The notes under the pieces are model-generated. The model ran no database searches, was not told the origin of the DNA, and saw nothing but the letters and a program-made list of their open reading frames with translations. The translations under genes and the position numbers were made by a program. From Escherichia coli (GTDB lineage Bacteria; Pseudomonadota; Gammaproteobacteria; Enterobacterales; Enterobacteriaceae): 64,000 nt of DNA. This document shows positions 5,030 to 45,284 of this stretch, piece by piece. Location: NCBI RefSeq assembly GCF_013315695.1, contig NZ_CP054353.1. The stretch is one strand, 5' to 3'. Each line of letters begins with the position of its first letter. The stretch's first letter is position 1.

Positions 5030-5517
5030 ATAGTTTTTATCCAGCAATGATACCATCGAGAAATCGATAGCTTCCTGCCAATCTTTTGCTGAATGTATAA
5101 CTGAGATTGATGATTTTGGAAAATAATCACTAAGCCGCATAAATTATCCTTATTTTATTTTTAGGGTACAGTCCGGCGGTAAAAATAAAATACTCGTGCG
5201 GTTTAATGAAAGCAATTGGGTACGCGAGAAGAAAAACCCCATGAACAAAAATAATAAAACCTTAAATAACAACAACATGAAATTGATATTTTTAAAGTCA
5301 ACTTTGTATTTGTTACGTTTATCACAAAATCAACATTTTGATTGTTGTTGTATTTGTGATGCATATCGCCATTTATTTATTGAATGTCCGAAAACATACT
5401 TTTTTAAAGCAATGTTTTTTCGCTATACCCCTTTATAGATTCTGAATTCTCACCTGTCGGCTGTTTTCTCCTCATCTCATGTGACATATTCCCACACTTT
5501 ACTCAAGGAAGATTGTC

Positions 5518-9553: not shown

Positions 9554-10306
9554 TCAGAGTAGTGATTTCACTTTATTTAGCAAAACGGCTACATCATCCG
9601 GTCGGGTATATCCCGTATCAGGGTCTATAATCGAGCTGTAAACATGTGGCATAATGCGCGGCACCCCCGCCTCCAGACAAGTTTTCAGAATCACACTGAA
9701 GTTATCCAAATCAATCCCGCCAGTCGGCTCAATCAGCGTCATACCATTGCGCGCCGCCGTGGTCGCCAGCGCGTATAGCTCCGGAAGCGACCTCTCGCCG
9801 CCCATCGGAAAGAACTTCGCCGCGTGTGCGCCCATATCTAGCATCATTCGCACCGCCGTATCGCAGGAGACGCGGGCTGGCGTACCCTGGCTGCTGCTAA
9901 CGCCGGTGGAAATCAGCACTTCGCCCGGCGTCCCCGTCGGGCTAACCAGCGCGTTGACATGGGTCTGCTCACCGCCCGTAGCCGCAAGCGCGCCTGCCGC
10001 GAACCCACAACCGGTAAAGGTCTGGTTAACGTGTGCTGGATGAATCTGCGCCGCAATCATCGCAGCTTTGTAATACTGCGCCGGGTCACCCGCCCCCAGA
10101 CCTACTGAAATGGACGGTATTTCCGCCATCCAACGTTTAACTTCCTGGATCCCCTCATCCACCGAGGAGAACTGCGCGGAAAGCACGCCAATCACTGCGT
10201 GGCCTTCGGCGGCGTCAAAGATTTCACGGGCATTGGCGATATCTTTCGCCAGCACATTAATTGCCACACGATTACGATAGAAATTAATCTTTTGCATGAT
10301 CTGCAA
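9554..10306 (-). CDS. dgaF: KDPG-aldolase-like protein, last gene of a sigma-54-dependent PTS operon (DgaF-like)
   Basis: 250 aa ORF at the distal end of the operon; assignment rests on operon context and analogy to the Salmonella dga locus. Confidence 0.55.
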   Translation of the reverse strand: MQIMQKINFYRNRVAINVLAKDIANAREIFDAAEGHAVIGVLSAQFSSVDEGIQEVKRWMAEIPSISVGLGAGDPAQYYKAAMIAAQIHPAHVNQTFTGCGFAAGALAATGGEQTHVNALVSPTGTPGEVLISTGVSSSQGTPARVSCDTAVRMMLDMGAHAAKFFPMGGERSLPELYALATTAARNGMTLIEPTGGIDLDNFSVILKTCLEAGVPRIMPHVYSSIIDPDTGYTRPDDVAVLLNKVKSLL

Positions 10307-11393
10307 TCTCCTTCAGTCGCGCCACGATAAGTGCCATTTCCCCTTCCGCCACCGTACGCGGATCAAGGCTAAAAACGCCCTGGTGGAGGTTATACCGCCG
10401 TGCATAAATCGCGATATCGCCACCACGCAGTTGCGCTTCGACGACGCGAGCGTCAACTCCCAATTCCTGCGCATTTACTCGAATACGAATACGCCAGATT
10501 GCACGCCCGGCTTCATCCTGCTCAATATCAGCCGTTAACCCGTGAATCGCAGAAATCGCTTCAACCACTGGCTGGAGCTGTTCCGCGGTGATGACTGCCT
10601 GCCCCTGGTGATAATTCTCCAGCGCGTAAACCAGCCCAACCATGTTCTCCTTGCCGATTTTCATCGCCTTGGCAATGCCGTGATGCTGCGCTTTGCAGGC
10701 TGCAATCCAGATTTTTTTACCAGTGATAAACCCGGAGGTCGGCGCGTTAAAGGCTTTTGCGCCGCTGTAGACCACCATATCCGCTCCACTCACCACCCAG
10801 GCACGTAAATCCTCTTCGGCGGCGGCATCGACAATCAGCGGCAGGTTGTACATCTGCGCGACATGTGCGAAGTCCTCGATGTTCAACATTCCCTTCTGCA
10901 CGCAGTGATGCGACTTCACATACAGCAGCGCGGCGGTCGCGTCGGTAATGGCACTCTCCAGCTGCCAGAGAGCCGCCAGGTTACTTGAACCCACCTCCAC
11001 AACGCGCCCGCCACCTAAGCGGATCGCGCTGAGGATCGATGCGCCGTAATCGACGTTATGGCCGCGCAGCATCACCACTTCATTGGCCATGCCGGAGCTA
11101 TCCGGCATGAGCGCCACCCGGGCCTTGTCGCCGCGGGTAATGGCGGCGGCGACAGCGATGGCGATCCCTGCTGAGGCACAGGAGGTAACGTAGCTATCCT
11201 CCGCCCCGGTAAAGCGAGAGACCAGCTCGCCGGTTTTGTCCACCAGCTGGTCAATCTCCACGAAAGAGGATGCCGCGCGCGCGGTGGCCTGCATCACCTC
11301 CAGCGCGACGCTGGAGACGCCGAGAATCGTCATCTTGCCGCAGGCGTTAATCACCTGTTTCAGTCCCAGTTGTTGATAGATATTCTGCGTCAT
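10284..11393 (-). CDS. dgaE: SelA-like PLP-dependent enzyme (D-glucosaminate-6-phosphate ammonia-lyase-like, DgaE-like)
   Basis: 369 aa ORF in operon with mannose-family PTS genes; family assigned by recall. Confidence 0.55.
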   Translation of the reverse strand: MTQNIYQQLGLKQVINACGKMTILGVSSVALEVMQATARAASSFVEIDQLVDKTGELVSRFTGAEDSYVTSCASAGIAIAVAAAITRGDKARVALMPDSSGMANEVVMLRGHNVDYGASILSAIRLGGGRVVEVGSSNLAALWQLESAITDATAALLYVKSHHCVQKGMLNIEDFAHVAQMYNLPLIVDAAAEEDLRAWVVSGADMVVYSGAKAFNAPTSGFITGKKIWIAACKAQHHGIAKAMKIGKENMVGLVYALENYHQGQAVITAEQLQPVVEAISAIHGLTADIEQDEAGRAIWRIRIRVNAQELGVDARVVEAQLRGGDIAIYARRYNLHQGVFSLDPRTVAEGEMALIVARLKEIADHAKD

Positions 11394-11396
11394 GGC

Positions 11397-12254
11397 TTAC
11401 AGCACTCCCAGCAGCGAGCAGACCACGCTCAACGCCACAATCGACAGCAGAATCGTGGTGTAACGCGGACCCTTTTTCACCAAATAGAAGTAGATGGCGA
11501 ACACTGCCGCCAGCGGCAGCAGGCCGGGCGCGATGGAGTCCAGAATCTGCTGTACCACCACTTCAGAGCCTTTCAGTGCGCTAATTTTTAAAGGTGAGGT
11601 TATCTTGACAAAGCTCGCGGATAGCGCGCCCATCATGATAAGCCCCAGTACATTAGCGCCGTAGATAAGCTCCTTGATGCGCCCCCCCTGCAGCAGGCTG
11701 ATAATCGAATCGCGCCCCAGCGTATAGCCCTTGTGCACCATGCCGTAGCTGATTGCCAGCGTAATCGCCGGGTAGAGAATCAGCGGCAAAATACCGCCCA
11801 TCGCGCTGCCATTGGCGGCGAACGGGATAAAAATAGCAATCAACAGCGGCATCACGGCCGCCCAGATGATGGAGTCGCCCATTCCGGCCAGCGGCCCCAT
11901 CAGGCCGGTTTTAATCCCGGTGATAGAGGCATCGTTAATCGCCTCGCCGCGGGTCTTTTGCTCTTCCATGGCGATGGAGATCCCTTGGATCACCGCGCCA
12001 AACGTCTGCTCTGAGTTGAAGAAGTTCAGATGGCGTTTTAACGCCTCCACCTGCTCCTCCTTTTGCGGATAGAGCTTTTTAATAATCGGCGTCATCGAGG
12101 CGCAGAAAATCAGGCTCTGTAAACGCTCATATGAGCTGGAAACTTCCGCGCCAAGCCAGTAGATAAACCACGCTTTGGTGATATCCGCTTTGGTCAGCGC
12201 CCCGGACTCCCGCGCGCGCTCCACCAGTTCATGCTGCATTACGTCGCCGCTCAT
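11397..12254 (-). CDS. dgaD: PTS mannose-family EIID component
   Basis: 285 aa polytopic membrane protein following the EIIC gene. Confidence 0.7.
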   Translation of the reverse strand: MSGDVMQHELVERARESGALTKADITKAWFIYWLGAEVSSSYERLQSLIFCASMTPIIKKLYPQKEEQVEALKRHLNFFNSEQTFGAVIQGISIAMEEQKTRGEAINDASITGIKTGLMGPLAGMGDSIIWAAVMPLLIAIFIPFAANGSAMGGILPLILYPAITLAISYGMVHKGYTLGRDSIISLLQGGRIKELIYGANVLGLIMMGALSASFVKITSPLKISALKGSEVVVQQILDSIAPGLLPLAAVFAIYFYLVKKGPRYTTILLSIVALSVVCSLLGVL

Positions 12255-13003
12255 TATGCCGCTCCTTCATTTTTCGCCAGGCCTTTAATCAGGAAGGCCA
12301 CGCAGGTGCCGAAAATCGCCATCGCCATGATGTCCACCTTGAGGTACAGCACCGCGAAGAATCCGCCGATAAACCACGGCAGTAGGCTCTTTTTACCAAT
12401 CACCATAATGGTGATGGCGAAGCCCAGCGCCGGGAGAATCCCGCCCATGATTTCAAACGAGTGGGTCAGCCAGTGCGGCATCAGCTTGAGGAAACTTTCC
12501 ACTACGTTCTGGCCGAAGTAGTTGGCGGCGAACACCACTGGGAAACGTAGCACCAGCCCCAGCAGCGCCGGGTAGAGAAAGGCGCAGCGCATAATGGCTG
12601 ATATATTGGCCGTTTCCGCGTGTTTATCGGCCATATGCACCCAGGCCGCATTTAGCGTGCGACGCAACTGGTCGAGGAATACGCCGATAACGCCAAATGG
12701 AATCGCCAGTGCAATCGCCAGGTTCGGGTCCATATTGGCCTTAACGGCGATAGGAATGGCGATACAGGCCGCCAGCGCCGGGTCTGACGGCACATTGCCG
12801 CCTGGCGTTGAGGTCACACCCAGATATACCAACTGCATCCCCGCGCCGATAATCATCGCCGCAGGCATGTTGCCGAGCAGCAGGCCGACAAAGACTGCCA
12901 CCACCACTGGCTGTAACAGCATGGCGGAGAAGGTATAGCCAAGGCGCAACCGGGCAAACCAGTAATACAGCCCCATCAGGCTTGCAAAAAGTAAGGTATC
13001 CAT
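12254..13003 (-). CDS. dgaC: PTS mannose-family EIIC component
   Basis: 249 aa polytopic membrane protein. Confidence 0.7.
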   Translation of the reverse strand: MDTLLFASLMGLYYWFARLRLGYTFSAMLLQPVVVAVFVGLLLGNMPAAMIIGAGMQLVYLGVTSTPGGNVPSDPALAACIAIPIAVKANMDPNLAIALAIPFGVIGVFLDQLRRTLNAAWVHMADKHAETANISAIMRCAFLYPALLGLVLRFPVVFAANYFGQNVVESFLKLMPHWLTHSFEIMGGILPALGFAITIMVIGKKSLLPWFIGGFFAVLYLKVDIMAMAIFGTCVAFLIKGLAKNEGAA

Positions 13004-13028
13004 AATTTGTTATCCCATGTTCAGAGGG

Positions 13029-13514
13029 TCAGAATTTTTTCAGGATATCGTCCAGCGACTGCGGCTTATCTTCCGGGATGGTCTGGAAAACAGCCTTAAT
13101 GCCGCGACTTTTCAAATCGTTAAGAATGCCAACGTCTTTTTCATCCAGAGTTATGTTCTGGAACACCGCTTTACGGTTTGGCCCGCCGCCTAAGCCGCCA
13201 ACCTGAATATCAGCCACGTCAAAGCCCTGCTGCACCGCTTCCTGAATCGCCGCCAGCGACGGGAACAGCACCAGCACGTTGCCGTCGCCCAGCTGGTTCT
13301 CTTTCCACGCGGCCGCGAAGCTCTGGTTGCTGAAGCAGTCCACTTTGATATTCGGCGGCGCGGCCATCAGGTAGATATTTTTCATAAACGGATCGGCGTC
13401 CAGCTCGTCGCTGACCACCGCAATACGGTTGGCCTGGGATTGCCCCACCCACTTCGTCACCACCTGTCCGTGGATAAGACGGCTGTCAATGCGACATAAC
13501 ACGATGTTTGCCAT
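13029..13514 (-). CDS. dgaB: PTS mannose-family EIIB component
   Basis: 161 aa; N-terminal MANIVLCRIDSRLIHGQV is the EIIB-Man phosphorylation-site signature. Confidence 0.75.
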   Translation of the reverse strand: MANIVLCRIDSRLIHGQVVTKWVGQSQANRIAVVSDELDADPFMKNIYLMAAPPNIKVDCFSNQSFAAAWKENQLGDGNVLVLFPSLAAIQEAVQQGFDVADIQVGGLGGGPNRKAVFQNITLDEKDVGILNDLKSRGIKAVFQTIPEDKPQSLDDILKKF

Positions 13515-13524
13515 ACGATTTTCC

Positions 13525-13953
13525 TTACTGTTGTAATTGACGAATATGGGAGACGACGTCCAGGCAACTGTTGCGCCCAGCTTCCACCAGATCGGCCACG
13601 CAGGCGGTCAGTGGGCCATGTTCGCGCTTGTCCAGCGCCTCCAGCAGCAGCGAGGCATTAAGCCCGGAGATCACCGCCACCGGATAATCGGCGCTCAGCC
13701 GCGCCGCCACGTTAGAGGTGGTGCCGCCGATAAAATCGGTCACGATAAGAGAACCTTCTGGCATGGTTTTCACCACGGCTTCGACGCGCTGGTAAAACTC
13801 GCCCAGCGTATCGACAGGCATCAGCGCGATTTCCGTCACGCCTTCGATTTCGCCCATCACCATGCGCAGACTGTTGCAGAGCTGCAGCCCCCAGCCGCCG
13901 TGAGTTAGCAGCAGAATTTCAGGTAACGGATGAATAGGTACAGTTGTGGTCAA
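13525..13953 (-). CDS. dgaA: PTS mannose-family EIIA component
   Basis: 142 aa; apparent TTG start preceded by AGGAGG Shine-Dalgarno; first gene after the sigma-54 promoter. Confidence 0.7.
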   Translation of the reverse strand: MTTTVPIHPLPEILLLTHGGWGLQLCNSLRMVMGEIEGVTEIALMPVDTLGEFYQRVEAVVKTMPEGSLIVTDFIGGTTSNVAARLSADYPVAVISGLNASLLLEALDKREHGPLTACVADLVEAGRNSCLDVVSHIRQLQQ

Positions 13954-13991
13954 AATAGCCTCCTTTGCTCCAGTGTTTACATTTCATCAGG

Positions 13992-14007
13992 AGCAAAGGA
14001 CGTGCCA
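13992..14007 (-). promoter_or_regulatory. Sigma-54 (RpoN) -24/-12 promoter TGGCAC-N5-TTGCT driving the PTS operon
   Basis: Minus strand reads TGGCACGTCCTTTGCT, an exact match to the GG-N10-GC consensus, about 40 bp upstream of the dgaA start and just downstream of the sigma-54 activator gene. Confidence 0.8.
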
Positions 14008-14071
14008 GAATTTGTGTCACGCACAGAGGAAATGAGATTGGATGGGGCGTTAAGCCCCGTAAACCAGGGGA

Positions 14072-16912
14072 TCAGCTGTAGAGCAGTTCGTAGATATAAA
14101 AATATTCTGCGTCCGATAAACGGATAGCGTAAGCCTCTTCAATCGGCAAAAAGGAGGATTTGATGACGCTAAAGGCACGAGCGTCCAGATCAAGCCGGTT
14201 TTCTAGCGCCATCTGTAACGGTTTGCGGTTAATCACGATACGCTCGACCATGCAGCAGCAGTGGATCAGAAAACGTAGTGTCACCTGGCGGCTCGGTTTC
14301 AGGGAGAGCGTGTTGGTTAAGTGGTTCAGAACGTCCTCGATCTCTTTCAGAATTCGCTGCGGGTTGAGCACCGAAATATGGTTGATGATGCTCTCCATGG
14401 TCAGCGCGCTGATAAAACGCATGGCGCTGCGCTCCATCTCCAGTCGGCGCTCGCTGCTTGAGAGATCCGGCGTCAGCAGGCTGAGCACCAGCTCTGGCCC
14501 TTGCTCGGAAAACAGTTCCTCCAGCGAGATAAACGGTATATCCGGCAGTCCCGGCTGGAAGGTGCCGACGATCCCTGCCAGCCGTTCACTGGCATTAAGC
14601 GCCTGCTGAATACGCTCCAGGCTGCGCACCTCGTTATAGTCGAGAATCACCATACGCGTGTCCTGCGACATCAGCTCGCCAAAGCTCTCCTCCAGCACCT
14701 TTTTGATCTTTTCCGCCGTCCCCATTCCGGTTATACATGAGATAACCAGCACTTTGCCACCGCTCTCTTGCTGCGGCGTGCAGAGCCGACAAGGGATATT
14801 TTTACTCTGCATAAGCACAGCCAATTGCGATAGATCGCCAGTTTCGTAGCTTAAATCCAGCCCCACCTCCAGCAGGCTGGTCAGAGTGATATTTGGCAAC
14901 AACAGAACGTCAATCTGGAACAGCTTGCTGATGGTGCTGCCAAAATGGACCAGCGATCCGATATCCACCATCAGTATCAGCCGCTGCCAGCACCGGTCCT
15001 GAATCATCCGGGTCAGGGTTTCCAGGGTGTCATGCACCGACTGCTCAAATGGCATATCAATTGCGTAGAACAGATCGCGCTCCAGCACCCGATTCACATA
15101 TTGCGCCTGGCTCGTTGCGGTGGTCGCACCGTGAGCGATTAGAATCACGCCGCAATCCGGGCTGGTGTCGATGCGCTGGCGGTAGTGGCGACACTCTTTC
15201 AGGAACAGGCACAGCCAGACCACCTCCGTCGCCGGGCACTGAATATGCAACAACTCATTGATTTTGCGGCACAGAAGTGTCGCATTGTCATACTCATCTT
15301 TACAGCGATCCAGAATCAGGCTGGATGAATAGAGTTGAGGTATAAGCCCTCGCCGCACATAGCCAATCAGCGCAAGAAAGTGTTTACGTAACGGGTTCGC
15401 CAGGTTTTCTGGCAATGTAAATCCTAATACCTGCTCCACGTAACCGATCAGCAGCGTCACACGCTCCTCAATTTGATCGCCATAGCGCGGTGGATGCGCC
15501 GCACTATGGCGGCTATAAAGACCATATTCAAAAATCGAACTGAGTTTGTTTTTCAGGATAGCCAGCGTTTCTGCGGGCGGCACGTTACTGTTGCGCAGAT
15601 TGACATATTCACGAGTCAGGAAACTGTAAAACAGGTCGCTCTCTTCTATTTCCGCGCTGGTCGCCAACGAATTTTTTAACGCGGGCAACGTACGCGCATC
15701 CACGTTCAGACGATCTTTACCACCAAACAACGCATCGACCAGCAGACGCTGCTCTGGCGTGGTATTAAACGACATCTCCGCCAGTCGTTTATCTAACTCT
15801 AGCGTATCATTACGCTCGGTCATTCCCGACGCCCACGCCTGCGCGCACAAGAACTGAATATCACTTTTAAGCTGGCCGATATTGCCTTCCAGGGATTTAC
15901 TTAACAACCAATGCAAGAGCGTTTTATCAAGGCTTATGGTACGTTCAATTTTACGACTTTCACGCTGAAAGAAGCTTACAATCAATTCGAGCTGCTCCTC
16001 GACCGAACGCTGGCGAATACCCGGTAAGTCAATACATACCTGGATACGCCGCTGGAAGGTACGCAATAGTGCCGAGTTGACCGACTCTGTAGTGGCGCAA
16101 ATAAGGCGCACCGAAATTGAATATGTTGGCCCACTTGAACCAAGTGGGCGGTATTCACCTTTATCGAGAATAGAAAAGAGCTTCTCTTGTCCTTCGTACG
16201 GGAGGCGATGCACTTCATCCAGAAGTAAATAGCCTCCGTCAGCTTGCTCCACCAATCCCGTTTTATTCTCACTTGCCCCGGTAAATGCCCCCTTATGGTG
16301 ACCAAACAGATGTGAGGAAAGCAACTCCGGATTATGAGCATATTCGGCACAGTTAAAGTAAACCAACGGAGGTAGCGAACCTATGGTGTGCTTGCAAGCG
16401 AAGCAATGCATTAACTCAGCAAAGAATGTTTTGCCAACACCAGATGCCCCGGTTAACAGCACATGTAGTCCGTGGGGATAGAGCACCGCTGCGCGGCCTT
16501 TTTCTACCGCATCACGGAGACTACGGTCGTATCCGATAAGTCCGGAAAACGGATCATCATCTGTATATTTTTCTTTCTTTGGCAATAAACTAGCCACTGA
16601 ATGAACTATGCATTCGCAATCATCCAGTTTTCGATTAATGAGCAATTCTAGTGCGTGACGATGTAGAAAAAAAACAGGACGTCCCTGACTTTTTACCACC
16701 AGGCCTTCATTCCATAATTGATTAAGATCTTTACTAACCGAGTTGCGTGCCAGCCCAAGGTTAAAACCAATCGCCTCAGCAGTAAATGCTTTCTCCTTCG
16801 CTAAATCAGACAGTTCCAGCCCATACGTCAGCCGCTCCAGCTCCTTGTGAATAACATCAATCCGTCTCATTTCTTTACCGCTTAAAAAACAATAGTTGTT
16901 CAGAACATACAC
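14072..16912 (-). CDS. dgaR: Sigma-54-dependent transcriptional activator with PTS regulation domains (LevR/DgaR-like)
   Basis: 946 aa ORF; AAA+ sigma-54 interaction domain with Walker A (GASGVGKT) and GAFTGA motif; long C-terminal region consistent with PRD/EIIA-like domains. Confidence 0.8.
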   Translation of the reverse strand: MYVLNNYCFLSGKEMRRIDVIHKELERLTYGLELSDLAKEKAFTAEAIGFNLGLARNSVSKDLNQLWNEGLVVKSQGRPVFFLHRHALELLINRKLDDCECIVHSVASLLPKKEKYTDDDPFSGLIGYDRSLRDAVEKGRAAVLYPHGLHVLLTGASGVGKTFFAELMHCFACKHTIGSLPPLVYFNCAEYAHNPELLSSHLFGHHKGAFTGASENKTGLVEQADGGYLLLDEVHRLPYEGQEKLFSILDKGEYRPLGSSGPTYSISVRLICATTESVNSALLRTFQRRIQVCIDLPGIRQRSVEEQLELIVSFFQRESRKIERTISLDKTLLHWLLSKSLEGNIGQLKSDIQFLCAQAWASGMTERNDTLELDKRLAEMSFNTTPEQRLLVDALFGGKDRLNVDARTLPALKNSLATSAEIEESDLFYSFLTREYVNLRNSNVPPAETLAILKNKLSSIFEYGLYSRHSAAHPPRYGDQIEERVTLLIGYVEQVLGFTLPENLANPLRKHFLALIGYVRRGLIPQLYSSSLILDRCKDEYDNATLLCRKINELLHIQCPATEVVWLCLFLKECRHYRQRIDTSPDCGVILIAHGATTATSQAQYVNRVLERDLFYAIDMPFEQSVHDTLETLTRMIQDRCWQRLILMVDIGSLVHFGSTISKLFQIDVLLLPNITLTSLLEVGLDLSYETGDLSQLAVLMQSKNIPCRLCTPQQESGGKVLVISCITGMGTAEKIKKVLEESFGELMSQDTRMVILDYNEVRSLERIQQALNASERLAGIVGTFQPGLPDIPFISLEELFSEQGPELVLSLLTPDLSSSERRLEMERSAMRFISALTMESIINHISVLNPQRILKEIEDVLNHLTNTLSLKPSRQVTLRFLIHCCCMVERIVINRKPLQMALENRLDLDARAFSVIKSSFLPIEEAYAIRLSDAEYFYIYELLYS

Positions 16913-17127
16913 TATTTGTAAACGTAAGAATGAGAACTACCGGGAAGAATTAATGTTCCTTGTGGCAATCTGGTTTCTGAATATTCGTGTTTTAAATATT
17001 ACTTATGGTCTGAAACAACCAGGCAGGTGAACAGAGCTAAGAAAAAGTCGCGTAGAAATATAAAAACATATATCGCACTGATGAATGTTTCCCGGCATGA
17101 CATACACACCGGGAAATATTTAGTAAA

Positions 17128-18048
17128 TTACTCGCCCTTTTTCGCCGCCTGAATATACAGCATTTCCAGCGCCAGCGTCGCCGCAGCCAGAGCGGTGATT
17201 TCCGACTGATCGTATGCCGGAGCCACTTCCACTACGTCCATCCCAACAATGTTGAGATCTTTCAGGCCGCGTACCAGTTTAATAGCGCGATCGGAGGTCA
17301 GGCCGCCAATTACTGGCGTACCGGTTCCCGGCGCGAAAGCAGGATCCAGGCAGTCGATATCAAAGGTCAGGTAAACCGGCATATCACCTACAATCTGTTT
17401 CACCTGAGCGATAACGTCATCCACGCTGCGATCGTTCACCTGGCAGGCGTCCAGCACGGTAAAACCGTTGTCTTTATCAAACTCGGTACGAATACCAATC
17501 TGCACGGAATGATTCGGGTCGATCAGACCTTCTTTCGGCGCGGTATAGAACATGGTGCCGTGGTCAAATTCACAACCGTTCGCATAGGTGTCGGTGTGGG
17601 CGTCAAAGTGTACCAGCGCCATTTTGCCGAAATGCTTCGCATGAGCACGCAGCAGCGGCAGCGTAACAAAGTGGTCACCACCGAAGGAGAGCATACGCTT
17701 ACCGGCAGCCAGCAGCTTCTCGGCGTGCGCCTGCAGCTTCTCGCTCATCTCACGGGCATCGCCGAAGGCATATACCAGATCGCCGCAGTCCACGACGTTC
17801 AGGCGCTCACGCATGTCGAAATTCCACGGGAAGCGATTGTGTTCCCAGGCCAGATTCGTCGAAACCTGACGGATCGCTGCCGGACCGTGGCGACCACCCG
17901 CACGACCAGAAGTGGCCATATCGAACGGCACGCCAGTAATCACCCAGTCAGCATCGCTGTCATATGGCTGGAAGTTCATCGGCAGGCGTAAAAAACCAAA
18001 GGCGTTGGAAACCAGTGAGTTATCGTATTGATGACCTAAGGTGCTCAT
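17128..18048 (-). CDS. speB: Agmatinase
   Basis: 306 aa; ureohydrolase motifs (GGDH, DAHTD). Confidence 0.95.
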
Positions 18049-36725: not shown

Positions 36726-36760
36726 TTTGCCGGATAACTTTTTATATTATCCGGCAAAGG
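36726..36760. terminator. Bidirectional terminator between the TRAP operon and yggM
   Basis: TTTGCCGGATAA...TTATCCGGCAAA inverted repeat with T-rich loop. Confidence 0.6.
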
Positions 36761-45247: not shown

Positions 45248-45284
45248 AGAAAAACGGGTCGCCAGAAGGTGACCCGTTTTTTTC
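45248..45284. terminator. Bidirectional Rho-independent terminator between convergent nupG and speC
   Basis: AAACGGGTC-GCCAGAAGGT-GACCCGTTT hairpin flanked by A-run and T-run. Confidence 0.8.

Follow-up and report, generated by a model that had tools for sequence, protein, structure and literature searches.

The window, by which we mean the whole 64-kb stretch of Escherichia coli DNA that was analysed, carries a dga island (dagR through dagF) at 9554-18048, between speB and loiP/tkt. The dga locus is accessory. It was found in 562 of 5426 complete E. coli genomes (~10%), was chromosomal in every case, and its copies in these genomes are nearly all at least 99% identical; the tested stretch of the window is 100% identical to the chromosome of E. 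coli strain LD67-1. On the minus strand, dagR/dgaR is followed, after an intergenic gap of 118 nt, by the D-glucosaminate PTS operon dgaABCDEF, in which the IIA gene (dgaA) precedes those for IIB, IIC, IID, DgaE and DagF. The NCBIfam equivalogs for DagR, DgaE and DagF were all matched. Since dgaR lies directly upstream of dgaA in the same orientation, no other source of read-through RNA is evident. An inverted repeat spans this junction on the minus strand. The features of the junction are collected in Table 1.

Table 1. Features at the dgaR-dgaA junction, in window coordinates.
Feature	Position	Strand	Basis or remark
dgaR/dagR, LevR-type sigma-54 enhancer-binding protein	14072..16870	-	NCBIfam equivalog NF047795, 1523 bits
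Weak 5-bp hairpin GGGGC-UUAAC-GCCCC	14044..14058	-	After dgaR stop
Sigma-54 (-24/-12) promoter TGGCACGTCCTTTGCT of dgaABCDEF	13992..14007	-	Consensus match
5' arm TCCTTTGCTCC	13990..14000	-	Promoter -19 to -9: spacer, -12 TTGCT, CC
Predicted sigma-54 transcription start	13981 (+/- 2 nt)	-	12 nt downstream of -12 C
3' arm GGAGCAAAGGA	13961..13971	-	Overlaps Shine-Dalgarno AAGGAGG (13965-13959)
Full predicted RNA hairpin	13956..14007	-	16 pairs, -22.5 kcal/mol, RNAfold
dgaA start codon TTG	13951..13953	-	Same start in PGAP annotation
dgaA, mannose-family PTS IIA, operon gene 1	13525..13953	-	Annotation/profile match

The promoter TGGCACGTCCTTTGCT is the sole match to the sigma-54 consensus (TGGCAC-N5-TTGCW) in the window, with its GG at 14006/14005 and its GC at 13994/13993. 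The exact consensus, together with the adjacent dgaR gene, places it among the sigma-54 promoters that have an enhancer-binding protein encoded next to them. In Salmonella Typhimurium, dgaABCDEF is sigma-54- and DgaR-dependent (Miller 2013, via review PMC4987338), and in LT2 a ChIP-chip study detected sigma-54 at the orthologous promoter, TGGCACAACCTTTGCTCT (Samuels 2013, PMC3844500). The DgaR binding site is given as unknown in the review (PMC4987338). A motif, (C)GTGACAC(A/G)AA, lies at 14020-14011 on the minus strand and ends 3 nt upstream of the -24 TGGCA, with its GTGACA core 6 nt upstream of that element. It is kept in nearly all dga-family loci (L002-L081), including those of Neisseriales and several Firmicutes, where it precedes the -24 element as, for example, ATGACACAAATT-TGGCAT or ACGACAGATTAT-TGGCAC. 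With the DgaR site left undefined in PMC4987338, this conserved motif could be a promoter-proximal element. On the other side of the promoter, AAGGAGG is separated by 5 nt from the TTG start of dgaA, and the TTG start and a near-perfect AGGAGG Shine-Dalgarno sequence (SD) are found throughout Enterobacterales.

An earlier note on this DNA had described an 11-bp inverted repeat at the junction, with the -12 TTGCT element in one arm and AGGAGG overlapped by the other. Our repeat search recovered both the repeat and this anatomy: the two 11-nt arms are 100% complementary and are separated by an 18-nt spacer. RNAfold extended the helix outwards through a C14002-G13960 pair and through pairing of UGGC (14007-14004) with GCUA (13959-13956), which includes one G.U pair, and left an 18-nt loop (13989-13972). 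The predicted helix joins the whole sigma-54 promoter (-26 to -9) to the SD region of dgaA, and the hairpin is present in both the minimum-free-energy and the centroid structures of the 146-nt junction RNA. As in a fold-back structure, the helix covers 13971-13956 and stops 2 nt short of the TTG at 13953. Searches with Rfam covariance models gave no match at E<=1 in 13800-14200. Elsewhere in the window, short-looped perfect inverted repeats with arms of 11 bp or more were seen at 5151-5192, 33573-33598, 36726-36758, 45250-45281, 60279-60303 and 62448-62476; that at 36726-36758 is a REP-like TTGCCGGATAA pair, and the AAAAACGGGTC/GACCCGTTTTT repeat at 45250-45281 resembles a bidirectional terminator.

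The main rival to any functional reading is that the repeat is a neutral, lineage-specific quasipalindrome, made up of a working promoter and a working ribosome-binding site (RBS) and without effect on expression. We consider this quite possible, though short of an even chance. In its favour, a bare 11-bp repeat somewhere in the 64 kb is at chance level: Markov shuffles, in which perfect 11-mer inverted repeats with loops of 3-40 nt were counted, gave 0.65 per window and P(>=1)=0.43. At its given position and geometry, however, the repeat moderately exceeds chance, with p of about 0.001-0.003. Of the same-geometry positions in the window, 0.12% can form a duplex of this strength (-24.6 kcal/mol). 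Shuffling the promoter positions outside the sigma-54 consensus gave p=0.003, and shuffling the RBS positions outside the SD and start codon gave p=0.002. When the energy of opening the SD was compared with full partition-function shuffles at 8 loci, p was about 0.02 for E. coli and 0.07-0.85 for the Citrobacter types.

The earlier note had also suggested that the repeat could be a coincidence of the two signals. Pairing with other promoters of the same class does not support this suggestion. The cognate promoter 18-mer paired with the dgaA RBS at -23.2 kcal/mol and ranked 1/29, whereas the 28 real heterologous sigma-54 promoters of Table 3 of Samuels et al. 2013 (PMC3844500) paired far more weakly with the same RBS (mean -9.6, best -17.2 kcal/mol). 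The part of the SD inside the 3' arm is AAGGA only, and its partner is the unconstrained promoter spacer. Because AAGGA pairs with this unconstrained spacer, and because heterologous promoters pair weakly, the two signals alone do not yield the repeat.

The -24/-12 geometry places the predicted sigma-54 transcription start mid-loop, 9 nt downstream of the 5' arm, so that the sigma-54-initiated mRNA would have a 28-nt leader without the 5' arm. With the predicted start between the arms, both arms would be carried only by read-through RNA from dgaR. This position of the start, a point absent from the earlier note, makes a role for the repeat at the RNA level plausible. The computed cost of opening the SD and start codon was 13.5 kcal/mol in the read-through RNA versus 4.3 kcal/mol in the sigma-54-initiated RNA. 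A scan for terminators and sigma-70 promoters found no such site between dgaR and dgaA, and the weak hairpin after the dgaR stop is the degenerate form of a hairpin that orthologues keep as a GC-rich stem of 9-10 bp. Together, the empty scan and the degenerate dgaR-terminal hairpin make read-through plausible in E. coli.

The best reading of these data, which we hold tentatively and at a little under even confidence, is that an RNA hairpin of the IS10/IS50 fold-back type occludes the RBS specifically in read-through transcripts. The repeat would act as RNA, and solely on transcripts that enter from dgaR. In such read-through RNA, the transcribed sigma-54 promoter (-26 to -9) would form an anti-Shine-Dalgarno arm and pair with the dgaA RBS, from GGAGCAAAGGAGGCUA to 2 nt before the TTG, thereby blocking the 30S subunit. 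The untranslated dgaA RNA may also be open to Rho-dependent polarity. Transcripts initiated by sigma-54 holoenzyme and DgaR would begin in the loop, at about 13981, and, lacking the 5' arm, would keep the RBS open. Expression of dgaABCDEF would in this way depend on its sigma-54 promoter alone, and the operon would be shielded from transcription of dgaR.

Alternatively, the hairpin could be a terminator or a 3'-end protective stem-loop of the dgaR transcript, with a role on the upstream RNA only, an explanation that we regard as improbable. It would account for the extended stem ending at GCUA (13956) with UUUUG directly after it, for the occurrence of GGCCAUUUUG at the same place in most Enterobacterales, and for the absence from E. 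coli of the strong dgaR-terminal hairpin of orthologues. However, a scan of both strands from 13700 to 14400 found no terminator site. The loop of 18 nt, which reaches about 110 nt where a REP element is inserted, lies outside the 3-8 nt of an intrinsic terminator, and the U-tract has 4 U only, within a start-codon context (tail UUUUGACC). Moreover, the strongest-pairing lineages, L027 with GGCCAAAUUG and L082 with GGCUUACUUG, have no U-tract at this place. A canonical intrinsic terminator was rejected on account of the empty scan, the long loop and the short U-tract.

The hairpin that follows dgaR in the orthologues bears on the fold-back reading in two ways. It lies about 10-40 nt after the dgaR stop (L003-L042, L082), and its sequence differs by genus; in Firmicutes, a canonical terminator (hairpin and U-run) follows dgaR. 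In most orthologues this strong hairpin may already stop read-through, which counts against the fold-back reading. The two lineages with the strongest fold-back pairing, E. coli and Pantoea sp. 1.19, have a degenerate, 5-bp form of this hairpin. This fits the idea that a strong fold-back compensates for a decayed dgaR-terminal hairpin, a fit that comes from two cases. Across the orthologues, a weak dgaR-terminal hairpin was not associated with a strong fold-back (Spearman 0.08), and only the two extremes fit.

Orthologues were collected by a scan of one genome per species, which gave 80 loci; the divergent Salmonella-type L082 was added to them. Forty-five of the loci have a sigma-54 promoter upstream of the IIA start, at a distance of 16 to about 130 nt. 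Conservation of the palindrome in related loci had been put forward in the earlier note as a check on its meaning, and the answer differs for the exact repeat and for the complementarity. The exact 11-bp helix was found only in Escherichia (the window, L002 and L084), which agrees with a neutral origin; complementarity between promoter and RBS recurs elsewhere in other registers and with other sequences. In the divergent E. coli strain L084, 7/7 substitutions over 146 nt fall outside the arms. Arms free of substitutions would arise by chance with P of about 0.16, and they are expected since the arms are promoter and SD.

Most Enterobacterales have GAGCCAGGAGGCCAUUUUG at the RBS instead of the E. 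coli arm. Their predicted promoter/RBS folds combine TGGC/GCCA with CC(U)/(A)GG and GCUC/GAGC, or else use (U)CUGGC(AC)/(GU)GCCAG(G). RNAalifold on 19 Enterobacterales gave a consensus helix, UCUGGC(-24)/GCCAGG, which abuts the SD and is paired in 16-19 of the 19. When the E. coli helix was projected onto the orthologues, 68% of cells paired; the inner half was lost and the register was not conserved. The predicted promoter-RBS pairing that orthologues retain is weaker. Several lineages pair strongly through sequences of their own. Pantoea sp. 1.19 (L027) has CUUGCUCUCUU/AAGAGAGUGAG (-23.6 kcal/mol), the divergent Salmonella-type L082 has GCCUCUUG/CAGGAGGC plus GUAACUAAAG/CUUUAGAUUGC (-21.1 kcal/mol), and Jeongeupia L037 has CCUUAUCGG/CCGAUAAGG; L029, Enterobacillus, Gilliamella L039 and Oceanobacillus also pair strongly, each with its own sequences. 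The apex of the fold coincides with the predicted start site in all of these lineages. Promoter-RBS pairing was at null level in L007, L010, L015, L021, L024, L042, the Rahnella type and several Firmicutes. An inner-stem test (-11 to -1 against the leader upstream of the SD) found nothing in E. coli or most Citrobacter and was significant in L016, L036, L082, L013, L014, L025 and L042, so that an inner stem is not uniform across the family.

Other features of these loci were observed in the course of the comparison. A REP/BIME-like element of about 95 nt (GCCGGATGGCGGC...GCCTTATCCGGCCTAC...) lies between the promoter and the dgaA RBS in six species of Citrobacter, Enterobacter and Superficieibacter (L003, L007, L010, L015, L020, L026), where it stretches the 5' UTR to about 120-128 nt. 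The metagenome contigs L082 and L083 represent a second, divergent type of dga-like locus in Salmonella, whose protein is named Salmonella Choleraesuis at NCBI. Its DgaA is 74% identical, its promoter TGGCATGCCTCTTGCG is distinct from the LT2 dgaA promoter, and a near full-length imperfect inverted repeat (-26 kcal/mol) runs from -30 to the start codon. In Enterobacterales, the SD flanks GCC...GGCC(A) are conserved beyond the needs of the SD. They could form a GCC/GGC mini-hairpin with AGGA in its loop. A CsrA-type GGA hairpin (GCC-AGGA-GGC) was considered as the reason for these flanks and set aside, its stem being 3 bp long. The Rahnella type, ACC-AGGA-GGU, shows one possible compensatory change in this 3-bp SD mini-hairpin.

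The earlier note had further proposed that the repeat could be a protein-binding palindrome, which we took as a DNA palindrome over the -12 element and leader bound by a dimeric regulator. The perfect symmetry in E. coli and the overlap with the promoter would suit such a site. However, 29 bp separate the centres of the half-sites, and there is no evident candidate binding protein. Neither the arm sequence nor the spacing is conserved: in orthologues the arms are between about 8 and about 110 nt apart, the larger distance where a REP element is inserted, and such insertions part the arms in six species. The orthologous pairings also need bulges and G.U wobbles. Several of the orthologue pairs are G.U, which would turn into A.C mismatches in the opposite strand or in double-stranded DNA; with their G.U pairs and bulges, these structures fit sense-strand RNA better than duplex DNA. 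A protein-binding palindrome was thus not borne out, the half-sites and spacing being unconserved and the G.U pairs being possible in RNA only, and we consider it very improbable.

The complementarity between promoter and RBS was also evaluated at the level of the family. Over 22 dga lineages it lay above the shuffle null (Fisher 9e-7) and differed from that of control loci (Mann-Whitney 3e-4), although these combined p-values overstate independence because the lineages are related by descent. The control, 48 unrelated sigma-54 promoter/RBS pairs drawn from a metagenome scan, gave uniform p-values (Fisher 0.48), with none below 0.01. The absence of the excess from this control argues against a neutral quasipalindrome, as do the lineages that independently reach strong pairing via different sequences and the GCCAGG and GCCA that flank the SD and are conserved beyond its requirement. 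Compensatory covariation, assessed by RNAalifold and pair counting, was not found: two-sided changes were seen in 0/6 consensus and 1/16 projected pairs, and the shuffle and slide controls were not exceeded. Promoter or SD function already dictates the bases of the conserved pairs, which accounts for this lack of covariation. The related Salmonella gfrA promoter (L133, metagenome) gave p=0.8 and rank 17/29 despite its similar topology. Both the lack of covariation and the null-level pairing of gfrA and of many orthologues are in line with neutrality. Collectively, the comparative evidence is mixed.

A neutral repeat could have arisen by drift in Escherichia, or by a one-step hairpin-templated (template-switch) mutation that perfected a pre-existing imperfect repeat. 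At the place of the E. coli 3' arm GGAGCAAAGGA, Cedecea and Citrobacter carry GAGCC-AGGA, with the left arm almost unchanged, and this clustered change is exactly the product expected of a template switch. On the neutral reading, the repeat is no more than a quasipalindrome that one lineage has perfected.

The fold-back reading would make the repeat a known kind of mechanism in a new context, for which the support is suggestive but not decisive. If the hairpin works in this way, it explains how a tight sigma-54 operon could avoid leaky expression when the co-oriented regulator gene that ends 118 nt upstream is transcribed constitutively. The IIA and IIB proteins, which LevR-type regulators induce, in turn control these regulators by phosphorylation. 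As a consequence of this control, the basal level of IIA and IIB sets the switch. One short DNA segment would then serve as promoter in DNA and as anti-SD in RNA, and the logic of fold-back inhibition would extend from insertion sequences to ordinary catabolic operons. A broader proposition is that, where an activator gene and a sigma-54 operon of the dga family stand in tandem, the sigma-54 promoter core doubles as an anti-SD, with the pairing re-invented through different sequences in different lineages and stronger where the activator gene's terminator hairpin has decayed (E. coli and Pantoea sp. 1.19). We regard this as rather unlikely; if it were true, only sigma-54-started RNA would be translatable, and leakage from the activator gene would be silenced.

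The closest known systems are the fold-back structures of insertion sequences. In IS10, the 3' arm reportedly lies over the RBS and the 5' arm upstream of the element's own start. Only transcripts that enter IS10 or IS50 from outside fold and stay translationally silent, the native transcript being open, and an equivalent fold-back structure forms in IS50 read-through transcripts. The dga repeat has a similar layout, with the RBS under its 3' arm and its 5' arm ahead of the operon's own predicted start. Unlike IS10 and IS50, dga is a chromosomal catabolic operon beside an activator gene rather than a transposon, the core of a sigma-54 promoter forms its 5' arm, and translational silencing is here a prediction. 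Fold-back inhibition of the IS10 (Tn10) transposase is credited to Davis, Simons & Kleckner 1985 in a passage of PMC13181058. The nearest relative by gene content, dgaABCDEF of Salmonella Typhimurium, belongs to the same operon family; as in E. coli, the operon follows the regulator gene and has a promoter of the same type. Its LT2 promoter is, however, of the Citrobacter type and, unlike that of E. coli, lacks a perfect 11-bp complement; RNA structure at the dga promoter or RBS is not mentioned in PMC4987338 or PMC3844500. The IS200 tnpA leader combines an SD-sequestering stem-loop with a left-end terminator against impinging transcription (PMC4513863). A strong SD buried in a stem and protection from outside transcription, the latter proposed for dga, are common to both. 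In contrast, the SD hairpin of IS200 lies inside the native 5' UTR and represses all transcripts, whereas the native dga transcript is predicted to escape.
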